DNA from: an uncultured Eubacteriales bacterium
Lineage (GTDB): Bacteria > Acidobacteriota > Aminicenantia > Aminicenantales > Aminicenantaceae
DNA length: 64,000 nt
Direction: 5' to 3'
Assembly (NCBI GenBank): GCA_964645765.1
Contig: CAZYBE010000011.1
Location: forward strand, 7,897-71,896
Position 1 is the stretch's first letter. Each line of letters starts with the position of its first letter. Below, one piece after another: positions 51,680 to 64,000 of this stretch. Both the position numbers and the translations under genes were made by a program. Under the pieces are notes generated by a model. That model saw nothing but the letters and a program-made list of their open reading frames with translations, did no database searches and was not told where the DNA came from.

Positions 51680-53041
51680 TCAGACTAATCCTTGTTCCAT
51701 CATGGCGCGGGCAACTTTCAGGAAACCGCCGATGTTGGCACCGTGGACATAATTGCCCGGGGCACCGTATGCTTCTGCGGCCTCGACACAGGTCTTATGA
51801 ATGCTCTTCATAATCTGATGCAGCCTGCGGTCGACCTCTTCCCTCGACCAGCTCATCCTCATGCTGTTCTGCGACATCTCGAGCCCGGAAGTGGCTACGC
51901 CGCCGGCGTTGGCCGCCTTGCCTGGGCCAAAAAGGATCTTGGCATCGAGAAAAATATCCACACCCTCAGCCGTTGTCGGCATGTTGGCGCCCTCGGCGAC
52001 CACATAGACGCCGTTCTTGATCAAGTTTTTCGCGTCTTTGGCATTAATTTCGTTCTGAGTGGCGCTCGGAAAAGCGCAGTCTGCCTTGATGTTCCAGACT
52101 GGATTGTAGTCCATGTCCGGCGTCAACGGTGTATAAGTCACGCCCTTGAACTTGTCGGCATATTCTTTGATCCGGCCGCGCCTGACATTCTTCAAATCCA
52201 TGACGAAGTTAAGCTTCTTGGCATCGATTCCCGCAGGGTCGAGGATAAAGCCGTTTGAGTCTGACAGAGTAATAACCTTTCCGCCGAGCTCGTTGATTTT
52301 TTCAACCGTATACTGGGCGACATTGCCGCTGCCGGAGACGAGGCATTTCTTGCCTTCGAGACTCTGATTTCTCGTGGCCAGCATCTCAGCGGCAAAGTAG
52401 ACGGCACCGTAGCCCGTGGCTTCGGGACGGATGAGCGAGCCGCCCCAGTCCAATCCCTTACCTGTTAACACACCTGTCACCTCATTCCTCAGCTTTCGAT
52501 ATTGACCGTATAAAAAGCCAATCTCGCGTCCGCCCACTCCAATATCGCCGGCAGGAATGTCGGTGTCCGGACCAATGTGCCGGTAGAGCTCGTTCATAAA
52601 GCTCTGACAGAGGTGCATGACTTCGTTATCACTTTTCCCCTTGGGGTCGAAATCGCAACCGCCCTTCCCTCCGCCCATGGGCAGGGTCGTAAGGGCATTC
52701 TTGAACACTTGCTCGAAGGCGAGAAACTTCAGAATGCCCAGGTTGACCGTGGGATGAAAGCGCAGGCCGCCTTTGTAAGGGCCAATGGCGCTGTTCATCT
52801 GAATCCTGTAGCCACGATTGACATGAACCTCGCCAGCATCGTCCATCCAAGTCACACGGAACATGAGAACCCTCTCCGGCTCGGCTATTCTCTCCAACAT
52901 CTTGACCTTGCGATATTCGGGGTGACGCTCGAGGGCCAGGGAGACGGAGTTCACAACTTCATAAACAGCTTGATGGAACTCGGGTTGAGCAGGATTCTTG
53001 GCTTTAATCTCATCCATGAAATCTTTTGTATAATTGCTCAT
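51680..53041 (-). CDS. gdhA: NADP-specific glutamate dehydrogenase
   Basis: [53 protein letters not shown] all intact. Confidence 0.95.
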
Positions 53042-53241
53042 AAAAACTCCTTTATTATGAAATTATAGTATATTATGATTTATACGTATCCTTTCTTCAA
53101 ATATCTTAAAATTGTTATGGATTTATTTGGATTCAATTTGGATTTTAATAAAAAAATCCAACCGTTCCGTAGCCGGCGCTTGCTTGACTTTTATAAAAGC
53201 AAGGCTTATTTTTTATAAAGAAAATAAAAAGGATAAATATT

Positions 53242-61392: not shown

Positions 61393-62838
61393 TCATCTCT
61401 TCGACTCTCTTTGTTCGTAAGCCTCGATCCATTTTTCGACGATTTGAGCCAGAGTCTGGCACAGCTGAGGTCCGCTGCCGTGGATAGGACGCAACTCTTC
61501 GGCAAGCTCTGGATAGCCTTTGCAGTCCAGCCAGGACGAGACGATATCATTGTCGGAGTACGGCTGAATTTTCTCGGTGCTCAGGGTCTGAAGAGTGGCG
61601 TAGAGATCATGCAGGTTGAATATTTTCTCTCCATTGATAATCAAAGGCGTCCTCTCCATTCGAGCGATTTCGACCTGAAAATGCCTCTTCAACTGAGTAA
61701 TGAGTTTCTGGCCCCGGCCCCTTTTGGGACGCAATCGATCGCCGAGCTCCGGGTAGCTGTGCATGTAGAGCCAGGTCGAGAACTTATCTTTCTCCCCATA
61801 GCTCTCCAGTATCTCCCGAAGCTTCAGTCCATGCTCGGTGTCCTTCTCGGCTTCCAAGAGGATGTTGCAAATGTCGTAGATATCTTTAGCGCGGTGCATT
61901 TCACGTCCATCCTTATCATGGATGAGAAAATCTCCCAGCCCTGTAAGGTTGAGAATATAATCCTTGAGCTTCTGCAGACTGTCTTGGTCGCCTTTGGGCA
62001 GGATGAAACCAAGGTCCTTGAGTTCAAAAGCTTCTTTTGCTTTGGAAGCAATGATCACAGGGATACGAGGATAATAAATGTTGACAAGGCGGATGAGGTC
62101 ACGGCCTGCCCTGCTCTGAAGGTCATCGCCTCTGGGAAAAAAGATATCGGCGATGAGACAGACAACATCGTCTCCGTGCCCCTGCGAGAGATAGTCCTTT
62201 TTTCTGACCTGAGACTCATCTTCAACCCCAAAGAGGAACTCGAGACTCTCCTCATAAGTGCGGGTAATCATGATGTCCGCCCGCTGACCGATGATCGTGT
62301 AGAGGACTGGGAGGAATTGAGAGAACCAGCGCGGCTCGTCATCGACCACATGGAAAATAAACCGCCGCACTCTTGAATATTTCTTGATATTGAGCAAATC
62401 TTCCGCCGCCCTGACGACCGATGGAATAATGCTCCTGGGAGCAAATTCATTCTTGTTGACCGCAAAGACAAGGTCGGCATTGGCTGTGTAGGGATACTTT
62501 TGTCTTGCAGCCTGAGGAGGCGAGCATTGAATGAAGGCTTGAGAGGAAAGAAGGACAAGGACCGCGTTACTGTTCTGCTTGCGGACTTTTCCGGCGTCAA
62601 GAATCGCCAACCCCGTGTCATCGAACAGGAATACAGAGGCCTCATCGGACGCGGCCATCATCACCGACTGAGGGTCAGAGAGAATTTCTGTCCCCAGCCA
62701 AGGCATGTTCTCTTCCAAGAGTTCTGCGGACTCCCGGAGCCGGGCGTCGGCGGCAAAAAGGACCGCCCGTTTTATCTTGACGGGGTTGATGACTCGGGGA
62801 ATGAACGGATATTCTCGAGGACGGCTTGAGCTAGTCAT
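61393..62838 (-). CDS. Stand-alone protein with tandem receiver-like domains and two helical repeats
   Basis: FHVVDDEP, RTYEES, CLIADIFFP...AG.DL, IPVIIAS; repeats FSTWLYMHSYPELGDRLRP and VSSWLDCKGYPELAEELRP. Confidence 0.7.
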   Translation of the reverse strand: MTSSSRPREYPFIPRVINPVKIKRAVLFAADARLRESAELLEENMPWLGTEILSDPQSVMMAASDEASVFLFDDTGLAILDAGKVRKQNSNAVLVLLSSQAFIQCSPPQAARQKYPYTANADLVFAVNKNEFAPRSIIPSVVRAAEDLLNIKKYSRVRRFIFHVVDDEPRWFSQFLPVLYTIIGQRADIMITRTYEESLEFLFGVEDESQVRKKDYLSQGHGDDVVCLIADIFFPRGDDLQSRAGRDLIRLVNIYYPRIPVIIASKAKEAFELKDLGFILPKGDQDSLQKLKDYILNLTGLGDFLIHDKDGREMHRAKDIYDICNILLEAEKDTEHGLKLREILESYGEKDKFSTWLYMHSYPELGDRLRPKRGRGQKLITQLKRHFQVEIARMERTPLIINGEKIFNLHDLYATLQTLSTEKIQPYSDNDIVSSWLDCKGYPELAEELRPIHGSGPQLCQTLAQIVEKWIEAYEQRESKR

Positions 62839-64000
62839 TCTCTAATACAACCTGGCAGCGCTGGTTGAGAGAATCGGCGTAAACCGTGACCGGGCTGGGA
62901 AAAGTCAAGACAGAAGGTATAGAATCAGGCTGGGGACAAGAAAAGAACCAAGGGTCAAAGGTGTCTTGCATGGGCATGACATAGCCATAAACGATGTTGT
63001 TGCATATCAGGTTGGTCAAGAAATGCGTGCCCTGGGTTCCATACATTCTCGTCTGCAGCCTTTTTTGGTCTTCATCAAAGCCTCCCTGGATCATATAGAG
63101 AAAATGGCTGCCGTAAACACCTCCTGTCAGGCTCTCTTCCTCCGCTAAAGGCTCTGACCGGCCAGCGATGTCCACCCCGTATTCGAAAATCGCCGCCGCC
63201 TGGTCAACGGACCTGTAGTCAATAGAAATGCCCCAATCCGGGTTCCTGCTGCCGAGACGACCTGGAACGACCATGATATATTTCTCTCCACGCCTCTCCA
63301 TCTCCTCGTTGACCTGGGCCATCTTTTTCCTGACCGCTGCCAACATTTCTTTTGTATAAACAAAAGGGGAGACAACGACCGCAAACTTGATGTTCTTTTT
63401 GACCCCATGACCCTGGGCATTATTGATCGAAAGGTAGGTATGCCGACAATGCTCGGGGACCTGGATGGAGTCAAACCTGAGCTCGGGAAGCTGGGTGAGT
63501 TGGACGATATGAAAGGTTCCTTCTCTTTTATCTTTCCTGGAAAAGTCAAGGTTGAAGACGAACTCGATCTGAAAATGGGAAGAGACGCGGGAGGCGATCG
63601 TCTCCATAATTTCGACAAGAGCAGTCTTGAAGTCGAAGTGGTTGTTCTGGACGAGCTCTTCTATGGTGATCAGGTCGTTCTTGACTCCCAAAAGCCTGAT
63701 TTTATGAAAATTGGCAAACTGCACGTGGAGCTTCCTCATCGTCTCCAGCTCTTCTCCCTTGAGCTCCCTATTCCTCGTCAGGTCCAGAGCGTAAAAATAC
63801 TGCTGGCCTCTTCCAATCCTCAGCAACTGAAGAGGGATAGGGTTGCGTATAGTAGCCATGGAAATGACGGGAAAATCGTCCAAGACTGTGGCATAGCCGT
63901 GCCCGAATGCGATCCGCGCAAACCCTTCCCTGGGGTCCTGGTTTTTGAGGGCATGGGGAAAAAAGGAATTGGCAACTCCAGAAATGTAGGGATAATAAAC
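62831..64000 (-). CDS. PEP-synthase-N-like ATP-grasp paralog 3, 5'-truncated by the window edge and degenerate
   Basis: Frame stays open to 64000 (VYYPYISGVANS...GFARIAFGHG); VPGRLGSR and GTHFL match the other two paralogs; LQxRP replaced by VQLTQ. Confidence 0.75.
   Translation of the reverse strand, partial: VYYPYISGVANSFFPHALKNQDPREGFARIAFGHGYATVLDDFPVISMATIRNPIPLQLLRIGRGQQYFYALDLTRNRELKGEELETMRKLHVQFANFHKIRLLGVKNDLITIEELVQNNHFDFKTALVEIMETIASRVSSHFQIEFVFNLDFSRKDKREGTFHIVQLTQLPELRFDSIQVPEHCRHTYLSINNAQGHGVKKNIKFAVVVSPFVYTKEMLAAVRKKMAQVNEEMERRGEKYIMVVPGRLGSRNPDWGISIDYRSVDQAAAIFEYGVDIAGRSEPLAEEESLTGGVYGSHFLYMIQGGFDEDQKRLQTRMYGTQGTHFLTNLICNNIVYGYVMPMQDTFDPWFFSCPQPDSIPSVLTFPSPVTVYADSLNQRCQVVLEND

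Follow-up and report, generated by a model that had tools for sequence, protein, structure and literature searches.

What holds two dissimilar glutamate dehydrogenases (GDHs) and a family of large, sensor-bearing ATP-grasp enzymes together in one locus? The question is raised by about 12 kb (positions 51680 to 64000) of a stretch of 64,000 nucleotides, the window in what follows, from an uncultured bacterium that GTDB places in the Aminicenantaceae (GenBank assembly GCA_964645765.1, contig CAZYBE010000011.1). An original prediction, made from the DNA alone, had taken the locus for a candidate carbon/nitrogen signalling system. The window genes were drawn from a listing of open reading frames (ORFs) together with Pfam/NCBIfam scans, and every gene that the prediction had named is present where it had been placed. 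We call them B (gdhA), C (GDH2), then D, E, F, G, I and J. The name K is given to a fused paralog of ~1000 amino acids with Response_reg, DUF5752, PPDK_N and CTD regions, and CTD to the C-terminal domain that these enzymes share after the ATP-grasp domain.

The locus is a composite of two modules that are conserved well outside this genome, plus the regulator G. Module M1 consists of a C-type GDH, D and E, with F as a frequent addition; module M2 consists of gdhA and K, the latter being split here into I and J. We propose, with a probability of roughly 0.4, that together they would provide a sensor-gated, ATP-dependent control of GDH, in which the ATP-grasp/CTD enzymes act on GDH itself. Action on GDH is favoured because two GDH subfamilies are paired with one enzyme family, because every large paralog carries a sensor domain, and because the linked GDH loses catalysis yet stays with its partners.

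Two modules linked to glutamate dehydrogenase

M1 occupies the forward strand as GDH2 (53242-54528; 428 amino acids), D (54519-56270; 583 amino acids) and E (56263-59457; 1064 amino acids). D starts at a TTG at 54519, a start that agrees with the 583-residue ortholog in locus L001 and gives a 10-nt overlap with the GDH2 stop, and E starts at ATG 56263, with an 8-nt overlap with the D stop. F (59466-60356, reverse strand; ATG 60329 is a possible true start) is convergent with E, and it is here, at 59457/59466, that the two converging operons already recognised in the prediction meet.

How widely is this arrangement kept? At least 80 E-centred loci were obtained by scanning GTDB species genomes with a diverse alignment, and a second set of E loci came from a separate scan of metagenome contigs, some contigs being common to both sets; seven K-centred contexts were found on long contigs. 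Neighbour counts include only loci with enough flank, and the window proteins were mapped onto all ORFs. All loci retrieved for comparison are from metagenome-assembled genomes (MAGs). E and I have their best hits in Candidatus Aminicenantes MAGs, with up to 95% identity for E and up to 90% for I, which places the window in an Aminicenantes genome; an exact look-up of I in public assemblies returned no record.

Searched against representatives clustered at 50% identity, E hits 1092 clusters below 1e-30, and the search found full-length orthologs at 34–56% identity as well as D–E fusions of 1523–1654 amino acids (P0243, P0246 and P0247). E loci are found in Aminicenantes, Zixibacteria, Ignavibacteria/Melioribacter, Calditrichota, Planctomycetota, Terriglobia, Eisenbacteria, Krumholzibacteria, Fermentibacteria, Cloacimonadota and others. 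The enzyme family as a whole is seen in hundreds of species (Acidobacteriota, Bacteroidota/Ignavibacteria, Calditrichota, Zixibacteria, Planctomycetota and others), and nearly all of its members have a GDH encoded with them. The genes do, then, co-occur in other genomes, with a core of GDH and E, joined in part by D and F, in at least 10 phylum-level lineages.

The order of the genes is kept as well. A GDH2 ortholog lies 5′ of E on the same strand in 64 of 69 genome loci, with 3 more divergent and adjacent, and in 49 of 53 metagenome loci; D stands directly 5′ of E in 60 of 80 genome loci, and F, convergent, 3′ of E in 45 of 67. An all-against-all clustering of the ORFs from 84 loci brought out no family recurring across lineages beyond C, D, E, F and K. 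Since the flanks of the block differ completely between genomes, the linkage of M1 is not mere synteny.

It might still be argued that housekeeping genes have come together by chance, or that the locus is a defence or toxin–antitoxin cassette built around the nucleotidyltransferase (NTase) domain at the end of E. This NTase, of the MNT type, weakly matches the PADLOC candidate family PDC-S09 and MntA, and an AbiE toxin–antitoxin pair lies 6 kb upstream. We regard either origin as very improbable, given that the linkage holds across phyla with wholly different flanks, and that overlapping start and stop codons, gene fusions and the co-variation of motifs with genes all point to a function. The defence-system reading was set aside: PADLOC gave only short matches of the NTase core to PDC-S09 and none for C, D, I, J or K, and no HEPN is present.

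M2 is represented in the window by gdhA (51680-53041, reverse strand; 453 amino acids) and, on the same strand, by I (61393-62838; 481 amino acids) and J (62831-64000), which overlap by 8 nt. J, the third ATP-grasp+CTD paralog, is open to the window end, with no stop, and about 165 N-terminal residues lie outside; in relatives it has 555 amino acids, and its first visible residues align with the ATP-grasp domains of D and E. By alignment, I and J are K in two polypeptides, I (aligning to K residues 156–416, E 3e-14) being the N-terminal and J (residues 509–951, E 4e-23) the C-terminal half, with the gene order swapped so that J comes first. Separate I and J genes are seen only in Aminicenantes-like loci (L001–L006 and L008). 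K itself is a large family in its own right and adjoins F or GDH in several other phyla. A gdhA of 453 amino acids lies directly 5′ of K on the same strand in 7 of 7 K-centred contexts, at a gap of ~80–170 nt, and the gdhA genes of L087–L090 are 77–80% identical to that of the window (four compared, the L090 copy being truncated).

The right-hand operon is therefore linked outside the window too, as I+J or K near F and GDH and after gdhA; this does not extend to G, which is limited to a sub-clade. The prediction had also mentioned gdhA beside PEP (phosphoenolpyruvate)-synthase-like genes in other anaerobes. That is correct for the receiver-containing K, of which gdhA is the partner; the GDH kept beside these ATP-grasp genes elsewhere is mainly of the archaeal type.

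Two further arrangements of K were seen. On Bacteroidota-type contigs (L088 6990-14456, L091 2927-10500 and L093 4557-10449) up to three GDH paralogs surround it, namely a divergent one of 470 amino acids, the 453-residue gdhA and a C-like one of 415, an unusual concentration of isozymes. In L090 (8311-18958) a truncated gdhA (240 amino acids, the first 208 of which match), K, a C-type GDH, D and an NTase-less E of 919 amino acids follow one another on one strand, with no phosphoesterase and in a module order unlike that of the window.

What kind of proteins are the two GDHs? PF00208 and PF02812 match both (the ELFV fold), and B-type and C-type GDHs are ~32–34% identical. With residues numbered after Clostridium symbiosum GDH, in which the roles of K89, K113, K125 and D165 are established, gdhA retains all four and reaches 751 bits on the NADP-GDH equivalog PRK09414 (cut-off 536); it is a canonical NADP-type enzyme and appears to be active, as had been predicted. 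GDH2 is an archaeal-type homolog, with 423 bits on GdhA_Arch, under the model cut-off of 750. It retains the substrate lysines K89 and K113 and the dinucleotide motif GFGNVAQ; its catalytic motif reads GGSSGG, the catalytic lysine being replaced (K125S), and PAPELM carries the change D165E. Against L001 and L005, GDH2 has a dN of 0.11 and a dN/dS of ~0.07, close to the 0.07–0.10 of D and E (dS is saturated, and the ratio approximate). GDH2 is not decaying and stays under purifying selection.

The pseudo-GDH of the prediction is real in this sense, and it proves to be lineage-specific. Among the 73 M1 GDH orthologs of the genome loci, K125 is kept in 62 and D165 in 70; the pseudo-GDH is a derived state. 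K125 has given way to S or N in the Aminicenantes clade and, in separate cases, to A in L041, Y in L078 and M in L082. In a neighbour-joining tree L082 sits beside a K125-retaining sequence, and L041 and L078 stand on separate deep branches, which argues for at least two to three independent losses.

These losses go together with the presence of a second GDH. The retrieved locus includes gdhA in 9 of the 11 K125-lost genome loci, the other 2 being on short contigs, and only 2 K125-retaining genome loci have gdhA nearby. Twelve metagenome loci have N, Y, S, F, H or M in place of K125, and gdhA is found within the flank (up to 5 kb) in 8 of them versus 2 of 40 K125-retaining loci. The pattern suggests that, with a second GDH present, catalysis could be dispensed with and that another role was kept, because the substitutes for K125 are varied and the rest of the protein is conserved. 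That the linked GDH has repeatedly become a conserved pseudoenzyme makes for a clean natural experiment in how enzymes turn into regulators.

ATP-grasp enzymes, their sensors and an accessory layer

As had been noticed from the DNA alone, D, E and J are ATP-grasp paralogs with a common C-terminal domain. The ATP-grasp domain is of the PPDK_N type and lies at ~54612-55736 in D and 57295-58401 in E, where PF01326 matches with E-values of 1.2e-34 and 2.7e-58, respectively; the best-matching sequences in the PDB are those of Listeria rifampin phosphotransferase and Neisseria PEP synthase. Nine residues of the nucleotide site were compared with Escherichia coli PpsA (K349, R448, S449, E454, D455, Q520, E695, Q707 and R709). 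All nine are PpsA-identical in 79/79 E, 56/56 D and at least 9/10 K sequences, and the sites of D, E and K are thus apparently live. In J the site is partly degenerate (Q520N, R709T, D455 variable), with the Arg, Glu and His of the CTD retained.

The CTD occupies 55716-56267 in D and 58405-59058 in E. Its two hallmark motifs, G-x-G-R-x-G and [GAS]-[TS]-H-F, occur in 85/85 E sequences each and in 69/72 and 67/72 D-class ORFs, the exceptions being fragments or variants. In an alignment of 50 D, E and J sequences the invariant positions are G28, N64, G78, R79, G81, G89, E105, G120, H122 and F123, within the signature NG...N...GxGRWGS...G...E...SxG[TS]HFF; R79, E105 and H122 correspond to R793, E819 and H836 of E. 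D ends ~95 amino acids past the His motif, and E runs on into the NTase.

The position of the CTD is that of the phosphohistidine domain in PEP synthase and PPDK, and it is tempting to see in it a phosphohistidine swivel domain. This proposal is unproven, since none of the searches lent it support. There is no Pfam match, PF00391 included, on D, E, J or 50 isolated CTDs, a profile search of the PDB returned no match, and hhalign against PPDK and a PpsA/PtsI/PPDK swivel alignment gave probabilities below 1% (with a thin template profile). A global MAFFT alignment with PpsA brings only the first G-x-G hairpin into register. The CTD would accordingly count as a new domain, the His of which may or may not be a phospho-carrier. 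In addition, Pfam/NCBIfam scans of D, E and J found no PF02896 TIM barrel or other acceptor-binding domain.

What would gate such enzymes? E begins with a GAF-like sensor (~56284-56712), followed by a helical region (56713-57282). The AlphaFold2 (AF2) model of E, and the Foldseek searches made with it, are usable only for this N-terminus and the ATP-grasp domain. Foldseek pairs the N-terminus locally with the GAF domains of Nlh1, NifA, CodY and phytochromes (probability 1.0, TMt 0.5–0.6). GAF is also the top Pfam family for 7 of 27 E N-termini, a weak but consistent signal (best E 0.0014). Among cluster representatives the module also occurs as four tandem copies in a stand-alone protein, above the Pfam GAF threshold (P0318), and as five tandem copies joined to a Ser/Thr kinase in P0364. 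It appears to be a portable sensor module.

I, which had been described as a tandem-receiver protein, has no Pfam match, and neither has J. The AF2 model of I (pLDDT 87) does contain two receiver/flavodoxin-like domains: the first (~62383-62769) is degenerate, and the second (~61939-62361) has a complete phospho-acceptor signature, with D166, D167, D231, S265 and K282 invariant in 41 sequences. A duplicated beta-hairpin and helical module, DUF5752-like, follows (61396-61938). The model retrieves tandem-receiver and tandem-SIS proteins in Foldseek, with low TM-scores. Matches to the receiver family PF00072 are given by G (8.6e-26) and by K. Together, the domains of E, K and I support a signalling character of the locus; the words "carbon/nitrogen" in the prediction derive only from the link to GDH.

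Could the enzymes instead serve a metabolic pathway? In such a pathway ATP-grasp/CTD would phosphorylate, and the NTase nucleotidylate, a small molecule connected with GDH (2-oxoglutarate, glutamate, NAD(P)H or a derivative), with F as the hydrolase of the product and GDH linked as supplier of the substrate. The nearest relatives of the ATP-grasp domain, PEP synthase, rifampin phosphotransferase and PigC, are indeed small-molecule phosphotransferases. Both GDH subfamilies are linked, and the feature common to the two is the reaction; up to three GDH paralogs surround K in several loci. This is the main alternative. We judge it unlikely, since the M1 GDH loses its lysine repeatedly and is kept, under purifying selection, with D and E; since GAF domains or tandem receivers, which all the large paralogs carry, are a usual mark of regulators; and since a substrate-binding TIM barrel or other acceptor domain is lacking.

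The NTase, which the prediction had counted as a gene, is present as the C-terminal domain of E (59074-59454). Its residues G968-S969...D980-x-D982 and D1025 are invariant or nearly so, and the GS...DxD motif is intact in 75/79 E orthologs. NTP_transf_2 matches above the Pfam cut-off, Polbeta just below it and an MTPAP-like family weakly, as does MntA in NCBIfam; no GlnE, GlnD_UR_UTase, HD or ACT domain was found in E by Pfam/NCBIfam. F, the metallophosphoesterase expected in the locus, belongs to PF00149 (6.6e-11). Across 53 orthologs its motifs D18xH20, G45D46, G93N94D95D96, H200 and G247H248xH250 show at least 95% conservation; the third reads GNDD in place of GNHD/E.

Not all E proteins keep a working NTase signature. 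Degenerate motifs read SDINLL, SKIHLL or SPIKLA or lack GS, and in L090 the domain is missing altogether. Catalytic NTase residues are lost in L012, L014, L063, L073, L115, L128, L133, L139–L141, L144, L146, L152, L160 and L166, and in at least three ways (DxN, K/H, or neither GS nor DxD), which amounts to a second pseudo-enzymisation in the same system. F is adjacent in 76 of 107 loci with an intact NTase versus 0 of 9 with a degenerate one (Fisher p 3.6e-5), and D in 88 of 118 versus 3 of 12 (p 0.001), both counts being pooled and not phylogeny-corrected. Within the intact-NTase loci, F is present in 59 of 72 that have D and in 8 of 24 that lack it.

Such co-variation would be expected if the NTase were a writer, F an eraser and D a partner. 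Writer, eraser and sensor parts had all been predicted, with the NTase and ATP-grasp enzymes as writers. The parts are present and F does co-vary with the intact NTase. The core effector, however, is better sought in ATP-grasp/CTD than in the NTase, which is dispensable or degenerate in some lineages. Because the NTase, F and D form a co-varying accessory layer, the irreducible unit would be a GDH with a sensor–ATP-grasp–CTD enzyme.

The response regulator G and the surroundings of the block

Where does G fit? It is an OmpR/PhoB-family response regulator (60407-61138, reverse strand; the probable start, ATG 61129, gives 240 amino acids), and the description of it as an orphan holds for the conserved block, in which no histidine kinase (HisKA + HATPase_c) is found in the window, L001, L002 or L005. 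G stands beside the block only in L001, L005 and L008, a sub-clade of the Aminicenantes loci.

The 200-bp region between gdhA and the divergent GDH2-D-E operon (53042-53241) has a conserved TTGAC −35 element (TTGACT at 53184), a TATTTT −10 element and direct GGATT repeats at 53119, 53129 and 53140, spaced by 10–11 bp. The repeats are recognisable, if degenerate, in the window, L001, L005 and L008, all of which have G, and absent in L002 and L006, which do not. They are tentatively a candidate OmpR box for G, the sample being small. A T/A-rich repeat 5′ of G (61156-61193) resembles this site and adjoins a promoter-like site (61247-61219). Together they may form a regulator box and autoregulation site, with the reservation that the second repeat is of low complexity and could be due to chance.

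These features invite a reading as a non-canonical phosphorelay. The ATP-grasp/CTD proteins would autophosphorylate on the CTD His, as do PPDK and enzyme I of the phosphotransferase system (PTS), and stand in for a kinase towards the receivers of K, I and G. The partner that senses metabolites would be GDH or the pseudo-GDH, and the relay would end in transcription of the gdh genes. In keeping with this, receivers are joined to, or encoded beside, ATP-grasp/CTD, the conserved block has no HisKA/HATPase kinase, the CTD His is invariant, and the candidate OmpR box is seen in the gdhA/GDH2 promoter only where G is present. Most M1 loci, however, have no receiver or transcription factor nearby, G is limited to one sub-clade, homology of the CTD with phosphohistidine domains is unsupported, and conventional kinases able to serve G and I are numerous in the window. 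We therefore think this relay improbable, and more so than the metabolic pathway. In L001 (19056-23207), from a 3.3-Mb Aminicenantes genome, the block is followed by a response regulator, then by a sensory histidine kinase that resembles [FeFe]-hydrogenase (Fe_hyd_lg_C + HisKA + HATPase_c), and then by more receiver and PAS kinases. L005 and L002 do not share this cluster, which in L001 could make up for the absent kinase.

Between I and G lies a palindrome of 161 nt (61225-61385), which has a perfect stem of 29 bp and a hairpin inside; its RNA fold has −91 kcal/mol (z = −9.3). It accounts for the longer I/G gap (254 nt versus 118 nt in L001) and for a spurious ORF of 85 codons, 'H' (61126-61383), which we rejected as a gene, as it overlaps the palindrome and related loci have no homolog of it. 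The palindrome is single-copy in the window, and was absent from the other loci, from Rfam and, by an exact 26-mer search, from metagenome contigs; with no second copy in any of these sequences, a mobile repeat was discarded as an explanation. It may be a terminator or attenuator between J-I and G-F, or an insertion like a miniature inverted-repeat transposable element (MITE). An Rfam scan of 50–64 kb found no credible RNA element.

The genes directly left of gdhA (48728-51643) encode a PHP-like protein, a Metallophos_2 protein and a LOG/TIGR00730-family protein of 346 amino acids with long extensions. They are probably unrelated to the block, and were dismissed as parts of the system since they are not beside it in L001, L002 or L005. 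Further left are an AAA_14/DUF4143 ATPase (46959-48197), which follows the type IV toxin–antitoxin pair of AbiEii nucleotidyltransferase toxin (44329-45387) and AbiEi antitoxin (45260-46108). On the reverse strand from 16568 to 43792 there are about five tandem paralogous triads, each with products of ~700–730, 226–230 and ~700–730 amino acids. One pair from a triad was scanned and consists of a TPR-containing histidine kinase (41651-43792) and an OmpR-type regulator (40957-41643); the region looks like a local expansion of two-component systems.

Possible control of glutamate dehydrogenase and relation to known systems

How, then, might the ATP-grasp/CTD enzymes act on GDH? In the mechanism that we favour, the ATP-grasp domains would use ATP under metabolite control through GAF, or two-component control through receivers, and the CTD would pass the action on to the GDH protein, most likely as a covalent modification. 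The group transferred would be a phosphoryl in the case of ATP-grasp/CTD and a nucleotidyl in that of the NTase, with F as the removing enzyme. In the present genome, a modified or ligand-binding GDH2 would be a non-catalytic regulatory or sensor subunit, gdhA would do the chemistry, and G would add transcriptional control at the divergent gdhA/GDH2 promoter. A bolder proposal, which we hold to be doubtful, is that ATP-grasp plus CTD forms a new class of signal-output enzyme that, on a cue perceived through GAF or receiver domains, covalently modifies GDH, or else a GDH-derived pseudoenzyme that in turn controls the active GDH. In the strongest version the CTD His would also feed the kinase-less receivers, in place of a histidine kinase.

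Several points tell against control of GDH by these enzymes. A shared metabolite would account for the gene linkage equally well. The AF2 model of E, built on an alignment of 41 sequences, is poor (pLDDT 58 overall, ~80 at the N-terminus). The ATP-grasp site of J is partly degenerate, and the CTD is unrelated by search to the swivel domain, Pfam or the PDB, so that a phosphoryl relay through its His is argued only from domain order and the invariance of that residue. As to the accessory layer, some lineages have a degenerate NTase or none, F is absent from ~30% of intact-NTase loci, and the statistics on NTase, F and D, uncorrected for phylogeny, come from locus sets that have a few contigs in common. 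Finally, K stands beside M1 in only a minority of E-centred loci.

GDH stands at the point where carbon and nitrogen metabolism meet, and what is known of its control in bacteria concerns mainly transcription and allostery. We are not aware of any system in bacteria that, in the manner of GlnE/GlnD, is devoted to covalent control of GDH, and full-text literature searches gave no account of the GDH/ATP-grasp-CTD module or of DUF5752. If the enzymes are regulators of GDH, they would explain how amino-acid catabolism is gated in many anaerobic, protein-degrading sediment bacteria. Close relatives of the module occur in genomes related to Melioribacter, a genus with a cultured species.

Does the module belong to a system already described? 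Its parts come from known superfamilies, namely ATP-grasp, GAF, receiver, MNT and metallophosphoesterase, the CTD alone being undescribed. As a whole its sequences fall outside the dikinases, the GlnE/GlnD enzymes, classical two-component systems and HEPN–MNT systems, the defining features of which it lacks in each case. Like classical two-component systems it has the receiver signature (in G, domain 2 of I, and K), but the cognate kinase is not in the block. In HEPN–MNT toxin–antitoxin pairs, MntA AMPylates HepT; the minimal NTase fold is the same, and known to nucleotidylate a protein partner, whereas here a HEPN partner is lacking and the NTase forms the end of a 1064-residue sensor enzyme in a metabolic context.

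With PEP synthase, PPDK, rifampin phosphotransferase and PigC the module has in common the PPDK_N ATP-grasp domain (PF01326), followed in both cases by a domain with an invariant His. It differs in having neither the PF00391 swivel domain nor the PF02896 TIM barrel, in the signature of the CTD, which is its own, in the fusion of sensors (GAF, receivers) and NTase, and in the GDH that is almost always co-encoded. If the proposed action on GDH is correct, a new domain would be at hand in the CTD, either catalytic or a phospho-carrier.

Precedents for the two GDHs come from elsewhere. In Thermus thermophilus, according to a preprint, GdhA and GdhB form a hetero-oligomeric GDH with APRTh (bioRxiv 10.1101/2025.10.31.685773, citing Tomita 2010, 2011, 2019); GdhA is an inactive regulatory subunit, and a lysine-less Ala-DH-like protein, ADLP, is an NAD(H) sensor. 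The likeness is that of a dead dehydrogenase homolog kept as a regulator or sensor, ADLP having its lysine replaced and NAD(H) binding kept. Here, too, an inactive GDH (C) is the divergent neighbour of an active one (B). The dead and live GDHs, however, belong to different subfamilies (~32–34% identity) and are divergently transcribed, and for this reason a mixed GDH2/gdhA hexamer is doubtful; the Thermus system is also without the ATP-grasp enzymes that share an operon with the pseudo-GDH here. Mammalian GDH is inactivated through AMPylation by SelO (PMC12375108), a precedent for switching off GDH by nucleotidylylation. SelO, however, is an AMPylase of pseudokinase fold, unrelated to the MNT domain in E; it is eukaryotic and mitochondrial, and genomic linkage is lacking.

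A parallel in role would be with GlnE, the glutamine synthetase adenylyltransferase, and GlnD, the PII uridylyltransferase, which run modification cycles. There, likewise, an NTase-fold enzyme and a ligand sensor are tied to an enzyme of ammonium assimilation, and adding and removing activities are paired. The NTase of E differs in being a minimal MNT/Pol-beta domain (PF01909/PF18765) that is dispensable in some lineages, its target is inferred, and the presumed eraser is a separate calcineurin-like phosphoesterase. Should the ATP-grasp/CTD enzymes indeed act on GDH, bacteria would possess a post-translational GDH switch comparable in role to that of GlnE on glutamine synthetase, built from PEP-synthase-like parts.

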